Source: Methanomassiliicoccales archaeon
GTDB taxonomy: Archaea > Thermoplasmatota > Thermoplasmata > Methanomassiliicoccales > UBA472
Assembly: GCA_040765825.1 (NCBI GenBank)
Contig: JAXGRO010000001.1
Location: forward strand, 46,483-110,482
Length of the DNA: 64,000 bases
Reading direction: 5' to 3'
The notes under the pieces were generated by a model. That model was not told where the DNA came from and did not search any database. It saw only the letters and a program-made list of their open reading frames with translations. Below, in pieces: positions 53,136 through 60,249 of this stretch. A program made the translations under genes and the position numbers. Numbering within the stretch: the stretch's first letter is position 1; the number at the start of each line of letters is the position of its first letter.

Positions 53136-53923
53136 GGCAGATAGCAATCTACGGGAAGGGCGGCATCGGAAAATCCACGGTGGCCGCCAATGTGGTGGCC
53201 AGCATGGCCGAGTCCGGCCTTCGCGTATGGTACGTGGGCTGCGACCCCAAGGCCGACGGTTCCATGACCCTGCTGGGCGGAAGGAAGATGGAAACATTCC
53301 TGGACCGCATGAAGGATGGCGGGCCCGGGGAATACGAGGTGGGATTGGGCTTCCAAGGGGCCATGTGCATGGAGGTCGGAGGCCCTCTGGCGGGCGTGGG
53401 CTGCGCCGGCCGGGGGATTATTGTTGCACTGCAGGCCCTGAAGAGGGACCACTTCCGGGACCCTCCGGACGTGGTGCTCTACGACGTCCCAGGGGACGTG
53501 GTCTGCGGTGGCTTCGCCACCCCGGTGCGCCAGGGGTTCGCGGACGAGGTGTACGTGGTCACCTCCGGAGAGTACCTGTCCCTGTACGCCGCCAACAACA
53601 TATGCCGGGGGATGCGCAACCTGGGGGTGGGAGTGGGCGGCCTGATCTGCAACTCCAGGGAAGTGATGAACGAGAGGGAGGCTGTGGCCTCGGTGGCGGG
53701 AAGGCTGGGCACCAAGATGCTGGGATTCGTGCCCCGGCACCGTTCCGTGCGGGACTGCGAGAACGCCGGCCGAACGGTGGTCGAGGGGGCGCCCGATTCC
53801 GAGCAGGCCCGGGCCTACCGGGAGCTGGCGGCCGCCATGCTCTCCAATTCCAGCTTCGCCGTGCCCCAGCCAATCGACCCCGCGGAGCTGCGATCGATGC
53901 TTAAGGAGCTGACCGCGGAATGA
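53132..53923 (+). CDS. cfbC: Ni-sirohydrochlorin a,c-diamide reductive cyclase, NifH-like ATPase subunit (NflH)
   Basis: IYGKGGIGKSTV, GCDPKADG and the cluster Cys residues GVGCAGRG...CGGF are present. It has an ATGA overlap with cfbD. Confidence 0.9.
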   Translation: MRQIAIYGKGGIGKSTVAANVVASMAESGLRVWYVGCDPKADGSMTLLGGRKMETFLDRMKDGGPGEYEVGLGFQGAMCMEVGGPLAGVGCAGRGIIVALQALKRDHFRDPPDVVLYDVPGDVVCGGFATPVRQGFADEVYVVTSGEYLSLYAANNICRGMRNLGVGVGGLICNSREVMNEREAVASVAGRLGTKMLGFVPRHRSVRDCENAGRTVVEGAPDSEQARAYRELAAAMLSNSSFAVPQPIDPAELRSMLKELTAE

Positions 53924-55245
53924 GGAGGGTGGTACTGGCCGGCTCGGGCAGCGGGGTGGGGAAGACCAGCATCGCCGCCGGGCTCATGCTGCGCCTGGGT
54001 GACGGGGTCCAGCCCTTCAAGGTCGGGCCGGACTTCATCGACCCCATGTTCCATTCCCTGGCCACCGGGCGCCCCTCCAGGAACCTGGACACGTTCATGA
54101 TGGACCCTGAGGTGATGGTGGAGCACTTCCGCTGGGCCTGCCGGGACGCGGACATGGCCCTGGTGGAGGGAGTGCGGGGGCTGTATGACGGCCTCACCTC
54201 CACCGAGGACGTGGGGAGCACCGCGGAGATAGCCAAGCTGCTGGACGCGCCGGTGGTGCTGGTGATCAACGCCCGCAGCCTGGCCAAGAGCGCTGCGGCG
54301 GTCGCGCTCGGATTCAAGAATCTGGACCCCCGGGTGCGGGTGGCCGGGGTCATCCTGAACAACGTGAGCGGGGAACGGCATCGGCGCAAGGCCACGGAGG
54401 CCGTGGAGCAGCTGGCAAAGCTGCCGGTGCTGGGAGCGGTGGAGCGGGGAAGGTCCCTTCCGGAAAGGCATCTCGGACTGCTCACCGTGGAGGAGCACGG
54501 GGACCGGGAAAGGCTCAAGGACGAACTGCGGGGGATGGTTGAGGACATCGATCTGGAGATGCTGAGGGAGATCGCCGAGACCTCTGGACCGATGGAGCCG
54601 CGCCGGGAGCCGCTCTTCCCCCGCGGGGACTCCGGGGCCAAGGTGGCCGTGCCCATGGACCGCTCGTTCTGCTTTTACTACCGGGAGAACCTGGAGGCCC
54701 TGGAGATGGCCGGGGCCGAGCTGCGTTACTTCCGCCCTGAGGAGGGCCAGGGCCTTCCGGACGCGGACCTGTACTATCTGGGCGGGGGGTATCCGGAGGC
54801 ACATATGGAGGAGATATCGGCCAACAGGGACTTCCTGGAGGGGCTGGGGAACGCCGCTGACGACCGGGCCATCTACGCGGAGTGCGGGGGGCTCATGATC
54901 CTGTGCTCGGCCATAGAGGCCGGCGGACGGGCGGAGATGGCCGGGGTGTTCCCCTGCGAGGCGCATCTGACCCCCGAGCGCCAGGGGCTCTCGTACGTCC
55001 GGGCGGCGGGCACCGCGCACAACCCCTTCTTCCCCGGGATCGAGGTGAGGGGGCATGAGTTCCACTACTCCCGCCTGGTTCCCCTCCCAGCCGGCCCCTT
55101 CGGTTTCGATGTGAGCAGGGGCACGGGCATAGACGGCCGCCACGACGGCATGGTGCGGGGGAAGGTGCTGGGAAGCTACCTGCATATGCACGCCCTCTCC
55201 CGCCTGGACTGGGGGAAAAGGCTTCTGGATGCGGCCCTGAGCTGA
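53920..55245 (+). CDS. cfbB: Ni-sirohydrochlorin a,c-diamide synthase (CbiA/CobB family amidotransferase)
   Basis: It has GSGSGVGKTS and the PDFIDP region. The C-terminal GATase has the nucleophile ECGGLMIL. It has an ATGA overlap with cfbC. Confidence 0.9.
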   Translation: MRRVVLAGSGSGVGKTSIAAGLMLRLGDGVQPFKVGPDFIDPMFHSLATGRPSRNLDTFMMDPEVMVEHFRWACRDADMALVEGVRGLYDGLTSTEDVGSTAEIAKLLDAPVVLVINARSLAKSAAAVALGFKNLDPRVRVAGVILNNVSGERHRRKATEAVEQLAKLPVLGAVERGRSLPERHLGLLTVEEHGDRERLKDELRGMVEDIDLEMLREIAETSGPMEPRREPLFPRGDSGAKVAVPMDRSFCFYYRENLEALEMAGAELRYFRPEEGQGLPDADLYYLGGGYPEAHMEEISANRDFLEGLGNAADDRAIYAECGGLMILCSAIEAGGRAEMAGVFPCEAHLTPERQGLSYVRAAGTAHNPFFPGIEVRGHEFHYSRLVPLPAGPFGFDVSRGTGIDGRHDGMVRGKVLGSYLHMHALSRLDWGKRLLDAALS

Positions 55246-55281
55246 AGAAATGTTTTCTATGCGCAGGGCCATAGGCCGTTC

Positions 55282-55707
55282 ATGCCCATCGGAGACCCCA
55301 TGGGGGCGGAGGCCCCCCTGCAAGAGAAGGGAAGGCTCACCCGGGTTTGGATGGCCACGGTGCCGGTGAGGGACCTGAACGCGGCCCTGGAGTTCTACAC
55401 CGTGCGGCTCGGGCTGGAGGTCCGGAGGAGGGATGACCGCTGGGCGGACCTGGGGCCCTCGGAACCGATGGGGAAGGTCGCGCTGTACGTGCCGTTGGCC
55501 GATGAGCCCAGGCAGCCCGGGGGACCCACGGGAGTGGTGTTCTCCTGCGACAGCATGTACGATGTCCACCGGGTGCTGGTGGACGAGGGTGTGATCTTCA
55601 AGCTAAAGCCGGAGCGGCAGCCCTGGGGCGGCCTCCTGGCCATCTTCCTGGACCAGGACGGCAACGAGCTGATGGTCCTGGAACACCCTGAACGGTACAA
55701 ACGATGA
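55282..55707 (+). CDS. VOC (glyoxalase/bleomycin-resistance/dioxygenase) family protein
   Basis: 141 aa. VPVRDLNAALEFYTVRLGLEV ... PWGGLLAIFLDQDGNELMVLE is a typical single VOC module. It starts 36 nt after cfbB. Confidence 0.75.
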   Translation: MPIGDPMGAEAPLQEKGRLTRVWMATVPVRDLNAALEFYTVRLGLEVRRRDDRWADLGPSEPMGKVALYVPLADEPRQPGGPTGVVFSCDSMYDVHRVLVDEGVIFKLKPERQPWGGLLAIFLDQDGNELMVLEHPERYKR

Positions 55708-57856: not shown

Positions 57857-58330
57857 TTGTCTGGACAGGACCTTCAGGTCGAGAGGGCGGTGCACGAGGC
57901 CCTGATGAAGATGAGGTCGCAGGACCGGTTAGACGTCGCCAGGTTCATGATAGATCCCGTGGTCCTCTACATACTGGCGGCCACGTCCCGGAGATGCCTG
58001 ACCGTATCCGAGATGTCGCCCATCGTGAACATGCCCCCGGCGACCTGCTACAAGATGATCTACCAGATGGAGAGGCTCGGCCTGGTGGCCTACTGCGGCC
58101 CGGGCCGGAACGGCGGCCGCGGCAAGGCCTCCACCTACACCTCGGTGCTCAGGGAGATGCGATTGGATGTGAGGGGCAACACCATACACCTCACCGTGGC
58201 CTGGAAGAACGGCACCTGCGACGAGTTCCACAGGGAGATGATGACCGTCGAGCCTGAGGGGGACGGTGCGGTGGGGACCGATGGCGTCCATGTCACCGTC
58301 GCACGGGACGGGGCCGCCTCCTCGGACTAG
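57857..58330 (+). CDS. wHTH (ArsR-like) regulator, paralogue of 23709..24065
   Basis: The HTH is LTVSEMSPIVNMPPATCYKMIYQMERLGLV, followed by a beta-rich C-terminal segment as in the paralogue. The start is TTG 57857 (ATG 57905 is an alternative). It ends TAG GAA GCT TGA. Confidence 0.65.
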   Translation: MSGQDLQVERAVHEALMKMRSQDRLDVARFMIDPVVLYILAATSRRCLTVSEMSPIVNMPPATCYKMIYQMERLGLVAYCGPGRNGGRGKASTYTSVLREMRLDVRGNTIHLTVAWKNGTCDEFHREMMTVEPEGDGAVGTDGVHVTVARDGAASSD

Positions 58331-58366
58331 GAAGCTTGATTAATCGCCACCCCGATGACCTGGACC

Positions 58367-59164
58367 ATGCGTGTGGTGAAGCGGTCCGGGGAGACCGAGG
58401 AGTTCGACCCCGCCAAGGCCATCAACGCCATCCTGCGTGCTGGGCTTTCCCAGGAGGACGCCGAGCGGCTGATGGATGAGGTGCGGCCCCGGCTCTATGA
58501 TGGAATGAGCACCGAGGAGCTGTACCGCATCATCAGGAGCAGGCTTCCCTCCTGCAACGCCAGCAGGTACTCCCTCAAGAAGGCCATACTGCTAATGGGC
58601 CCCGACGGCCATTCCTTCGAGACCCTGGTGGGCAGGGTGTTCCAGGAGCTGGGATACCATGTGGAGGTCCGACAGCTGCTCAAGGGACACTGCGTCACCC
58701 ACGAGGTGGACCTGGTCATCAGCAAGGGCGGTAGCAAGGGCATGGTGGAGTGCAAGTACCACAACGCACCGAACTACAAGAGCAGCATCCAGGAGGCCCT
58801 TTACACCTACAGCAGGTTCCTGGACCTCAAGGACTCCCATGGCTTCGACGCGCCCTGGCTGGTGACCAACACCAAGTTCTCCGGGGACGTGGTGCAGTAC
58901 GCCAGGTGCGTGGGCATGAGGACCGTATGCTGGAAGTGCACGGAGGAGAAGGGGCTGGAGAGGCTGGTGGAGAAGGCCAATGTGTACCCGGTGACCGTGC
59001 TGAGCCTGAGGAAGAACGAGTGGCGCACCCTGCTGGACCACGACCTGGTGCTCTGCCGGGACCTGATCGAGCGAAAGGAGGAGGTGCGCAGGCTGTTCCC
59101 CAGGGAGACCGCCGACCGCGTGATCGCAAAGGCCGCGGAGTTCCTCGAGTGTGTGAAGAGATGA
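58367..59164 (+). CDS. ATP-cone domain fused to PD-(D/E)xK (Mrr-cat-like) nuclease domain
   Basis: ATG 58367 lies ~22 nt downstream of ttgattaatcgc. The N-terminal MRVVKRSGETEEFDPAKAINAILRAG...EELYRIIRSRL is an ATP-cone. The central FETLVGRVFQELGY...HEVDLVISKGGSKGMVECKYH gives the D...E-x-K motif. The C-terminal ~90 aa contain CWKC. Confidence 0.75.
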   Translation: MRVVKRSGETEEFDPAKAINAILRAGLSQEDAERLMDEVRPRLYDGMSTEELYRIIRSRLPSCNASRYSLKKAILLMGPDGHSFETLVGRVFQELGYHVEVRQLLKGHCVTHEVDLVISKGGSKGMVECKYHNAPNYKSSIQEALYTYSRFLDLKDSHGFDAPWLVTNTKFSGDVVQYARCVGMRTVCWKCTEEKGLERLVEKANVYPVTVLSLRKNEWRTLLDHDLVLCRDLIERKEEVRRLFPRETADRVIAKAAEFLECVKR

Positions 59165-60249
59165 GGTTCAGCGTGGTACTGGGCACCCGGCCCGAGATAG
59201 TGAAGATGTCCCCGGTGGTGCGCGAGCTTCAGCGTACCCGCCATGACTTCGACCTGGTGCACACCGGGCAGCACTACTCCTTCGATATGGACAAGGTGTT
59301 CTTCCGGGACCTGGAGCTTCCGGAGCCTGCCGTCAACCTGGAGGTGGGATCGGGCACCCACGGGGCGCAGACCGGAAGGATGCTGGCCGGCCTGGAGGCC
59401 TTCTTCCAGAGCAGCCGCCCGGACATGGTCCTGGTGCAGGGGGACACCAACACGGTCCTGGCCGGGGCCCTGGCCGCGGTGAAGCTGGGGATCCCGGTGG
59501 GGCATGTGGAGGCCGGCCTGCGCTCCTTCGACCGCAGCATGCCGGAGGAGACCAACCGGGTGCTGGCGGACCACGCCTCGGACCTGCTGTTCGCCCCCAC
59601 GGAGACATCAGCGCGGAACCTGAGGGCCGAGGGGATACCGGAGGAGAGGATATTCGTAACCGGCAACACCATCGTGGACGCGGTGCGGGAGAACCTCCAG
59701 CTGGCCCGGGACAAAGGGGACGCTCTGGCAAAGCTGGGGGTGAGCAAGGGGAGGTACATCCTGGCCACCCTGCACCGGCAGGAGAACGTGGACTCCCGGG
59801 AGCGCATGAGAGGCATACTGGAGGGCCTGGGGAAGGTGTCCGGGGGCACGGGAATGCCGGTCATTTGGCCCGTGCATCCCCGCACCGGCAAGAACCTGGA
59901 GCGGTTCGGGCTCTCCGTTCCCGAGGGGGTGAGGACGGTGGCCCCCCTGGGCTTCCTGGAGTTCCTGCAGGCCGAGGGCAGCGCCGCCCTCGCCCTTACC
60001 GACTCGGGAGGGGTGCAGGAGGAGTGCTGCATCCTGGGCGTCCCCTGCGTGACGCTCCGGGACAACACCGAGCGCCCGGAGACGGTGGACGTGGGGGCCA
60101 ATGTGGTCGCCGGCACCTCCCCCTCCAGGGTGCTGGCCCTGGCCCTGGAGATGCTGGACCGCAAGGGTGGATGGGAATGCCCGCTGGGAGCCCCCGGCTC
60201 CGCGGAACGCATAGTCTCCATTTGCCTGAGGCGAAGCAAACAGGGGTAA
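59161..60249 (+). CDS. wecB: UDP-N-acetylglucosamine 2-epimerase (non-hydrolysing)
   Basis: LGTRPEIVKMSPV, HTGQHYS, VQGDTNT and HVEAGLRS are present. It has an ATGA overlap with the upstream gene. Confidence 0.9.
   Translation: MRFSVVLGTRPEIVKMSPVVRELQRTRHDFDLVHTGQHYSFDMDKVFFRDLELPEPAVNLEVGSGTHGAQTGRMLAGLEAFFQSSRPDMVLVQGDTNTVLAGALAAVKLGIPVGHVEAGLRSFDRSMPEETNRVLADHASDLLFAPTETSARNLRAEGIPEERIFVTGNTIVDAVRENLQLARDKGDALAKLGVSKGRYILATLHRQENVDSRERMRGILEGLGKVSGGTGMPVIWPVHPRTGKNLERFGLSVPEGVRTVAPLGFLEFLQAEGSAALALTDSGGVQEECCILGVPCVTLRDNTERPETVDVGANVVAGTSPSRVLALALEMLDRKGGWECPLGAPGSAERIVSICLRRSKQG

Follow-up and report, generated by a model that had tools for sequence, protein, structure and literature searches.

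An ATP-Cone Fused to a PD-(D/E)xK Nuclease in a Methanomassiliicoccales Archaeon: A Widespread Family with a Possible Link to Nucleotide Salvage

Introduction

To our knowledge, what is understood about ATP-cones concerns almost entirely their regulation of the synthesis of deoxyribonucleoside triphosphates (dNTPs), in the ribonucleotide reductases (RNRs) and in NrdR, the repressor of RNR genes that consists of a Zn-ribbon and an ATP-cone. In the present study, a gene that joins such a cone to a predicted PD-(D/E)xK nuclease was analyzed in a stretch of 64,000 nucleotides (hereafter, the window) of a contig from a Methanomassiliicoccales archaeon. The gene lies at positions 58367–59164 of the window, and a preliminary description, made from the letters of the window, had read its product as an ATP-cone sensor fused to a nuclease domain whose activity is coupled to the pool of adenosine triphosphate (ATP) and deoxyadenosine triphosphate (dATP).

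The N-terminal sensor of the protein is of the same kind as that of NrdR, which is the closest to it in sequence, and by analogy a similar logic would be expected, in which the nucleotide changes the conformation or the oligomeric state. However, the output here is a predicted catalytic nuclease and not a Zn-ribbon DNA binder, the cone is located at the extreme N-terminus, and there is no association with nrd genes. Identity with NrdR was rejected because the protein has no Zn-ribbon, begins with the cone, and has no RNR genes in the neighborhoods examined. In the RNRs NrdA, NrdD, NrdJ, and NrdB (the last from Leeuwenhoekiella), an N-terminal ATP-cone is likewise attached to an enzyme, which it switches on or off allosterically; the enzyme behind the cone is a dNTP-synthesizing reductase there, whereas it is a predicted nucleic-acid hydrolase here.

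The nuclease part belongs to the same Pfam family, Mrr_cat, as the type IV enzymes Mrr, MspJI, and AspBHI, and the fold of the core is similar, with a sequence identity of 15–19% to enzymes of this type in the Foldseek alignments. The window protein differs from them in that it has no reader of modified DNA and no defence context, and its sequence conservation is far higher. A restriction enzyme of the Mrr type or of type IV was rejected because the N-terminal domain is an ATP-cone and not a winged helix or an SRA-like reader. The CARF/SAVED-gated nucleases Can2, Card1, and Cdn1 are alike in outline, as a sensor of small nucleotides stands N-terminal to a PD-(D/E)xK nuclease, and the nuclease part of the window protein matched them weakly, both in structure and in profile searches. 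Their sensor is CARF and not an ATP-cone, however, and the ligand expected for the window protein is a housekeeping nucleotide instead of a cyclic oligoadenylate; its family also has no neighborhood of CRISPR or of cyclic-oligonucleotide-based anti-phage signaling systems (CBASS).

The literature search found no paper studying the fusion of an ATP-cone and a nuclease, with the original ATP-cone paper (PMID 10939243) lying outside its scope. Thus, the statement in the preliminary description that the fusion had not been characterized experimentally stands as far as experimental papers are concerned. It needs to be qualified in that the fusion is already labelled in databases and the structure of the nuclease half has been solved (PDB 1Y88). 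The database labels are "ATP cone domain-containing protein", "restriction endonuclease", "Holliday junction resolvase-like endonuclease", and "NrdR family". Neither the modules nor the allosteric logic is new, whereas the nuclease output of an ATP-cone and a role in salvage are undescribed in the literature searched.

Results and Discussion

Domain Architecture and Predicted Structure

The Pfam search assigned three families to the window protein, each above its cutoff. The ATP-cone family (PF03477) matched residues 1–61 with an E-value of 8e-11 and 42.8 bits against a cutoff of 25.8, covering positions 1–68 of the 88 positions of the hidden Markov model. Mrr_cat (PF04471) matched residues 80–180 (E-value 6.5e-8; 33.1 bits against 21), and AF1548-like_C (PF22357) matched residues 207–258 (E-value 1.2e-9; 38.5 bits against 23.9). 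No NCBIfam model matched the protein, and the PADLOC search gave weak CARF_PDDEXK matches (8e-4) on the nuclease part only.

The AlphaFold2 model built from 82 relatives is confident, with a predicted local distance difference test score (pLDDT) of 94.3 and a predicted template modeling score of 0.88, and the linker shows no disorder. With both domains above the Pfam gathering scores and a confident model, the fusion of an ATP-cone to a PD-(D/E)xK domain is confirmed, as are the motifs by which it had been recognized, namely VVKRSGETEEFDPAKAINAI, FETLVG, HEVDLVIS, and MVECKYH. In the model, the cone consists of a β-hairpin at residues 2–12 (strands 2–4 and 10–12) and helices at 15–24, 29–42, 49–59, 62–68, and 70–75, with a pLDDT of about 90, in agreement with the ATP-cone fold, in which a four-helix bundle comes after the hairpin. 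The nuclease core consists of a helix at 82–94, strands at 98–106, 111–120, and 123–130, a helix at 141–158, and a strand at 162–167, which is the α-β-β-β-α-β arrangement of the PD-(D/E)xK core.

The Foldseek search of the model against the PDB gave 1Y88 (AF1548) as the top match, with an E-value of 3e-18, a template modeling score of 0.86 normalized to the target, and a root-mean-square deviation of 2.5 Å over 184 columns. It was followed by MspJI, AspBHI, NucS/EndoMS, Bax1, the R2 endonuclease domain, Can2, Card1, and Cdn1, on the nuclease part. The cone was superimposed on that of NrdR (9fxk) over 79 columns at 1.9–2.0 Å and on those of the RNRs 7agj (88 columns, 2.7 Å) and 3hnf (86 columns, 3.0 Å), and the RNR cone of 5olk was also matched. 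As the search of the PDB with the single sequence of the cone alone was too weak, the family profile was used to align the cone. The C-terminal domain is possibly helix-hairpin-helix-like (HhH-like) and may bind nucleic acid; its similarity to HHH_5 is only weak and was found in an Archaeoglobus member (E-value 0.013). By every sequence and fold criterion examined, the window protein belongs to all three families, namely ATP-cone, Mrr_cat, and AF1548-like.

Conserved Residues of the Sensor and the Nuclease

The conservation of each residue was counted over an alignment of 381 relatives. E85, E113, D115, E128, K130, R150, and D153 are invariant in all 381 sequences, and the spacing D115-x12-E128-x-K130 is that of the triad predicted to be catalytic in AF1548 by Yooseph et al. 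(PMC1821046). The predicted catalytic set of E85, D115, E128, and K130 is therefore complete, as the nuclease assignment had implied. The segment that joins the two domains, G78-P79-x-G81-x-x-F84-E85, is almost equally constant: G78 and G81 are invariant, P79 is found in 377 and F84 in 380 of the 381 relatives. In the C-terminal domain, P208 is invariant and T210 is nearly so. The CWKC motif to which the preliminary description had drawn attention in the C-terminal region is not conserved, as C188 occurs in only 8 of the 381 relatives and only W189 is kept; on this ground, a metal-binding role of the motif was rejected.

In the cone, the predicted ligand residues are V3, K5, R6, E11, F13, K17, R24, and K71. 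The first seven align, both by profile and pairwise, with V48, K50, R51, E56, F58, K62, and K69 of the NrdR of S. coelicolor, which contact ATP or dATP in the cryo-electron microscopy structures, and mutation of V48, K50, E56, or K62 abolished nucleotide binding there (PMC9110341). K5 is found in 376 of the 381 relatives, K17 in 375, T49 in 357, F13 in 343, and E11 in 335; K71 is found in 356, with Arg in 24 more, and R24 in 320, with Lys in 37 more. R6 is variable, with Arg in 153 and Ala in 152 relatives, and the NrdR of E. coli also has no Arg at the equivalent position of the alignment.

The conservation and the model support the view that both the cone and the nuclease are functional. Since the ligand residues and the catalytic residues are both kept, a nuclease coupled to adenine nucleotides is the natural reading. 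To this extent, the earlier idea of a sensor-gated nuclease is upheld by the intact residues of both domains, whereas its likening to defence nucleases is not, as the gene context is one of housekeeping genes (see below).

Relation to AF1548

AF1548 of Archaeoglobus fulgidus, which entered the PDB from structural genomics as a "protein of unknown function" (1Y88), belongs to the same family, with an E-value of 4.7e-41 over residues 87–257 of the window protein and of 1e-57 for the family profile. It shares the D-x12-E-x-K triad and the C-terminal domain PF22357 with the window protein. However, the crystallized chain starts at the equivalent of residue 87, so that both the ATP-cone and the GPxGxxFE segment carrying E85 are missing from it.

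An Archaeoglobus protein (P0275, encoded at L083:8001-8798) is identical to the 1Y88 chain at 172 of 173 positions, yet it has 265 amino acids and a complete ATP-cone. The codons of its gene at the junction are TTT GTG GCG, and the members from Ferroglobus and Geoglobus are also full-length. Because a protein of such high identity is full-length, AF1548 was probably annotated from an internal start. Judging from these sequences, 1Y88 most likely represents an N-terminally truncated annotation that has lost the sensor and one residue of the catalytic helix.

Size and Distribution of the Family

The family was found in two branches. In the archaeal, Candidate Phyla Radiation (CPR), and DPANN branch, at least 582 loci of GTDB species representatives encode a member. 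The archaea among the listed loci are Methanomassiliicoccales, Archaeoglobi, Micrarchaeota, Aenigmatarchaeota, Nanoarchaeota, Thermofilaceae, Bathyarchaeia, Hadarchaeum, and Nitrosopumilaceae, and the bacteria are Levyibacteriota and other Patescibacteria, Bacteroidales, and Limnocylindrales. Among the matches listed for the window protein, the closest relatives are from Methanomassiliicoccales. When 1.84 billion representatives were searched with the profile, 601 clusters (50% identity) had E-values of 1e-30 or lower, and the best 150 of these are all full-length three-domain proteins of 263–335 amino acids. In the bacterial branch, from Bacteroidota and Chlamydiota, clustering at 90% identity gives at least 6547 protein clusters under the same E-value limit; this branch is only about 36% identical to the archaeal/CPR branch. 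The family is huge and under strong purifying selection. Members occur in the cultured hosts Ferroglobus placidus, Geoglobus, Pontibacter, Chitinophaga, and Psychroserpens.

Gene Cassette of the Bacterial Branch

In the bacterial branch, the gene is commonly found at the head of a cassette of four genes on the same strand, which encode the ATP-cone nuclease, a hydrolase of the metallo-β-lactamase (MBL) fold, a protein of the thymidine phosphorylase family, and a ribose-phosphate pyrophosphokinase (Prs). Full-length copies were found in 2 of 72,556 plasmid records, from Criblamydia sequanensis (Chlamydiota) and Pontibacter actiniarum (Cytophagales); both carry the cassette, and the partner proteins are 54–60% identical between them. 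The cassette is also present in a third, independent record, a metagenome-assembled genome (MAG) of Bacteroidota, where the MBL protein consists of Lactamase_B, Beta-Casp, and RMMBL domains, and a MAG of Chlamydiia has the pair of the nuclease and the β-CASP gene. In Chitinophaga and Psychroserpens, an AAA_28 P-loop protein is encoded instead, either alongside CstA or inside a cluster with genes for a universal stress protein (Usp), PFK, and a P-type ATPase.

The same arrangement was counted in 80 bacterial metagenome loci, which were the top matches of a single query and come in many cases from related marine Bacteroidota. The β-CASP gene lies directly downstream of the nuclease gene in 35 of the 56 loci where this could be assessed, and AAA_28 takes this place in 5 more. 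The full trio of β-CASP, phosphorylase, and Prs genes follows in 22 of 45 assessable loci, and in 18 of 60 loci the gene immediately upstream of the nuclease gene encodes a tandem Usp. In the NCBIfam search, the phosphorylase was above the cutoff for TIGR02645/NF003338 and reached 486 bits against a cutoff of 535 for AMP phosphorylase, the kinase was above the cutoff for NF005537, and the β-CASP protein was nearest to aCPSF1 and to Cas14-type ribonucleases, below the cutoffs. The cassette partners had no meaningful match to the PADLOC defence models.

Two further observations were made on these loci. An open reading frame (ORF) of 84 amino acids with a C-terminal CCGGN and no Pfam match stands between the nuclease and β-CASP genes in 22 of the 80 metagenome loci (for example, L087:7883-8137, L125:4256-4507, and L103:4390-4641), with 48–87% identity. 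On the Criblamydia plasmid (L085, 5885–19950), the cassette lies amid genes for a P-type ATPase, phosphoketolase, glycogen phosphorylase, acetate kinase, and glucoamylase, and the region looks like a transferable module for fermentation or starvation.

Proposed Role in Nucleotide Turnover

The products of the neighboring cassette genes describe a path from polymer to mononucleotide, then to base and pentose phosphate, and on to phosphoribosyl pyrophosphate (PRPP). The bacterial gene context therefore points to nucleic-acid turnover and nucleotide salvage, a reading that was absent from the preliminary description. A pathway of nucleoside and AMP phosphorylases has been described in CPR and DPANN (PMC5113843, PMC6389311), and the spread of the family in these groups fits the salvage reading for this reason. 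On the evidence of sequence and gene order, we give an even chance to the view that the protein is a stand-alone, chromosomally stable endonuclease that is gated by adenine nucleotides and feeds nucleotide salvage or catabolism.

The mechanism would proceed as follows. The N-terminal ATP-cone would bind ATP and/or dATP, or possibly ADP or AMP. The short, invariant GPxGxxFE linker would connect the last helix of the cone directly to the E85-bearing first catalytic helix, and the invariance of the linker suggests a tight mechanical coupling of the sensor to the active site. As the linker joins these two helices, a movement of the cone upon ligand binding, or a cone-to-cone oligomerization as in NrdR and the RNRs, could switch the Mg2+-dependent PD-(D/E)xK site on or off, while the C-terminal helical domain would hold the nucleic acid. 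With the nucleotide or energy pool at a low level, the nuclease would then introduce the initial endonucleolytic cuts, and the subsequent steps would be taken in many bacteria by the β-CASP nuclease, the AMP-phosphorylase-like enzyme, and the PRPP synthetase encoded next to it. Ligand binding, the direction of the switch, and the nature of the substrate, DNA or RNA, are all inferred here, and for this archaeon, whose copy lies between a winged helix-turn-helix (winged-HTH) gene and wecB, the physiological role is an extrapolation.

A more specific form of this proposal is put forward only tentatively: the cone might serve as a gauge of the energy charge or of dATP that licenses the cutting of the cell's own or scavenged nucleic acid in starvation, hypoxia, or dormancy, with the products passing in turn to the β-CASP exonuclease, the AMP-phosphorylase-like enzyme, and the PRPP synthetase. 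If so, no earlier ATP-cone would have been shown to control a hydrolase, and the control of the nucleotide supply by cones would gain a second, catabolic arm, common to thousands of genomes of Bacteroidota, Chlamydiota, CPR, DPANN, and other archaea. More generally, if the cone gates cutting, a classic allosteric module is extended to the breakdown of nucleic acids. The operon link to the β-CASP, AMP-phosphorylase-like, and PRPP synthetase genes also offers an entry step for the nucleoside/AMP pathway of CPR and DPANN (PMC5113843, PMC6389311). The proposal lends itself to testing because the proteins are small and look soluble, the model is confident, cultured hosts exist, and a crystal structure of the nuclease half is available.

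Several points weigh against a role in salvage. The 80 archaeal/CPR loci examined, like the window gene, have no salvage partners, except for a gene of the phosphorylase family at locus L034, and the role is transferred to them from a bacterial branch with the low identity given above. The counts from the 80 bacterial metagenome loci do not represent independent events, since these loci are not independent of one another in phylogeny. The cassette partners, an aCPSF1-like β-CASP protein and an AMP-phosphorylase-like enzyme among them, look ribo-oriented, whereas DNA is suggested by the nuclease core of Mrr type and by the possible HhH domain, and the DinB and Orc1/Cdc6 genes found next to some members fit a role in DNA maintenance equally well. 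Moreover, with Ala in about 40% of the members in place of R6, whose NrdR equivalent R51 contacts phosphate, the ligand preference may differ between the branches.

Archaeal and CPR Neighborhoods and Alternative Readings

The archaeal/CPR branch was examined at these 80 loci, where genes were called with a conservation-weighted choice of ORFs and the 138 neighbors at positions −1 and +1 were scanned. No universal partner gene was found across the 80 loci; the synteny is specific to each lineage and stable within it. In Methanomassiliicoccales, SufC/SufBD genes lie further upstream of the winged-HTH gene. In CPR, a gene for a DUF2079 membrane protein lies upstream in 21 loci and a gene for a DinB-type (Y-family) polymerase is convergent in 16, and in Micrarchaeota, an Orc1/Cdc6 gene is divergent in 6 loci.

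These last two neighbors bear on an alternative in which the protein would be a structure-specific endonuclease for damaged DNA or stalled forks; the dATP/ATP ratio would license it and thereby tie its cutting to the dNTP supply. The combination of a nuclease core with a C-terminal HhH-like domain, to which the weak HHH_5 similarity contributes, would be arranged as in XPF/Hef, and the Foldseek neighbors include the repair nucleases NucS/EndoMS and Bax1. The sequences are very highly conserved by the standard of nucleases, with a mean column identity of about 50% across archaea and bacteria, and this fits a structural substrate instead of a sequence-specific one. However, neither the DinB nor the Orc1 link extends beyond a single lineage, and each may reflect plain synteny; no partner in repair recurs from lineage to lineage, and the bacterial branch is tied to genes of nucleotide metabolism and stress instead of repair. 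This role in DNA maintenance is therefore considered rather unlikely.

The preliminary description had seen in the protein a resemblance to nucleotide-sensing defence or stress nucleases, and had named the genomic context, defence islands or housekeeping genes, as a point to examine. The corresponding reading is a solitary Mrr-like (type IV) or abortive-infection nuclease against viruses or plasmids, triggered when infection disturbs the ATP/dATP pool. The Mrr_cat domain is in its favor, as are the nearest functional folds after 1Y88, MspJI, AspBHI, and the ligand-gated Can2, Card1, and Cdn1, together with the weak PADLOC match to CARF_PDDEXK. The patchy occurrence among the domains of life suggests horizontal transfer, and in Ferroglobus, genes for a HicA toxin, a transposase, and a Prim-Pol protein are found at a distance of a few kilobases. 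On the other hand, no enrichment of defence families was found among the 138 flanking genes, where PADLOC gave scattered single matches only, and the partners of the bacterial cassette match no PADLOC system. No methyltransferase was found among the 25 commonest Pfam families of these neighbors, in the neighborhood of the window gene, or in the Archaeoglobi and bacterial neighborhoods examined; membership in a type II restriction-modification system was rejected because no cognate methyltransferase was found nearby. None of 50,697 phage records contains a copy, on which ground a phage origin was also rejected, and the gene is nearly absent from plasmids. Its location is stable within lineages, beside housekeeping genes, its sequence is unusually well conserved compared with restriction enzymes, and the N-terminal reader of DNA modification of Mrr, MspJI, and AspBHI is missing. 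The gene context differs from that of a defence-island gene, so that the defence flavor of the preliminary description is not supported, and a defence nuclease is an improbable reading.

That the nuclease fold serves as a DNA-binding module only, so that the protein would be a counterpart of NrdR in archaea and CPR and repress genes in response to the dATP/ATP ratio, is very improbable: the cone is closest in sequence to NrdR cones and one member carries the JGI label "transcriptional regulator NrdR family protein", but the invariance of the catalytic residues in all 381 relatives is unexpected for a fold kept only for binding, a Zn-ribbon is lacking, and no RNR genes were found in the archaeal/CPR, Archaeoglobi, or bacterial neighborhoods examined.

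In three genera of Archaeoglobi, the nuclease gene directly follows a gene for membrane transport or a channel (Table 1) and overlaps it in two of them. This adjacency may be due to chance or to a link with stress. MscS-type genes occur four times among the 138 neighbors.

Members of the gene clusters of the DUF2079 membrane protein, the nuclease, and the convergent DinB were also found in MAG records named "uncultured Gammaproteobacteria bacterium" (L030, L031, L037, L041, L050, L056, L073, L079, and L080). The taxonomic labels of these records look doubtful because the members of these clusters otherwise come from Levyibacteriota and Patescibacteria loci.

Start Site and Neighboring Genes in the Window

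The coordinates of the gene, its domains, and its neighbors are collected in Table 1.

Table 1. Positions of the features of the nuclease gene and its neighbors in the window, and of the genes upstream of the Archaeoglobi members (locus:coordinates).
Feature	Position	Strand	Remarks
ATP-cone / PD-(D/E)xK / AF1548-like_C protein, coding sequence	58367..59164	+	265 amino acids; alternative in-frame ATG at 58355; stop TGA at 59162-59164
ATP-cone sensor domain, residues 1-76	58367..58594	+	PF03477, model, Foldseek, residue mapping, conservation
GPxGxxFE linker and PD-(D/E)xK core, residues 77-190	58595..58936	+	Mrr_cat, 1Y88 match, conservation
C-terminal helical domain (AF1548-like_C)	58937..59161	+	PF22357; helices at 197-264 in the model
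Catalytic codons (predicted)	E85 58619-58621; D115 58709-58711; E128 58748-58750; K130 58754-58756	+	alignment
TATA-like box TTGATTAAT	58336..58344	+	about 30 nucleotides 5' of ATG 58367; putative promoter
Small upstream gene, probable winged-HTH	57857..58330	+	sub-threshold HTH_20, IclR, and Fe_dep_repress matches, residues 31-79
wecB, non-hydrolyzing UDP-N-acetylglucosamine 2-epimerase	59161..60249	+	TIGR00236, E-value 1.2e-116; start overlaps the nuclease stop (ATGA)
CorA gene, Archaeoglobi	L081:6958-8001
Amino-acid permease-Usp fusion gene, Archaeoglobi	L082:5722-7998
MscS gene, Archaeoglobi	L083:7193-8035

Most homologues begin with M-x-V-x-K-R/A-S-G, which agrees with the start at 58367. 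A TGATTWAT box is found at a similar spacing 5′ of the orthologue in nine loci (L001, L002, L003, L004, L005, L007, L009, L016, and L020). The spacing of the TATA-like box and the N-termini of the homologues favor the ATG at 58367 over that at 58355 and an mRNA with no leader or a very short one, so that the mRNA is more probably leaderless or nearly so. A leaderless-type promoter had been proposed for the gene; the box recurs in relatives at the appropriate place, and its function as a promoter is predicted from this position.

The upstream gene is a probable winged-HTH protein. Its Pfam matches are below threshold (HTH_20, E-value 2.9e-4 and 21 bits against a cutoff of 27; HTH_IclR, E-value 1.9e-3), no curated family is above threshold, and there are weak matches to the PADLOC Csa3/CARF3 models. 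The gene is present in 19 Methanomassiliicoccales loci and lies directly upstream of the nuclease gene on the same strand in 15 of them. The order of the two genes given in the preliminary description is borne out and recurs in these loci, while the domain assignment of the upstream gene is held at the level of sub-threshold matches.

On the downstream side, the ATGA overlap with wecB was found as described, and wecB follows the nuclease gene in only six related loci. In one Methanomassiliicoccaceae MAG (MFD00905.bin.2.116), there are two copies of the nuclease gene on different contigs (L040 and L074), with a winged-HTH gene before each; the L040 copy has wecB downstream.

The G+C content of the window is 63.7%. 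Long antisense ORFs opposite real genes are artefacts of this content and mislead gene calling by the longest ORF; an example is the ORF at 53815–55569 on the reverse strand, which has 584 amino acids and lies opposite the ORF at 53920–55245 and its neighbors.

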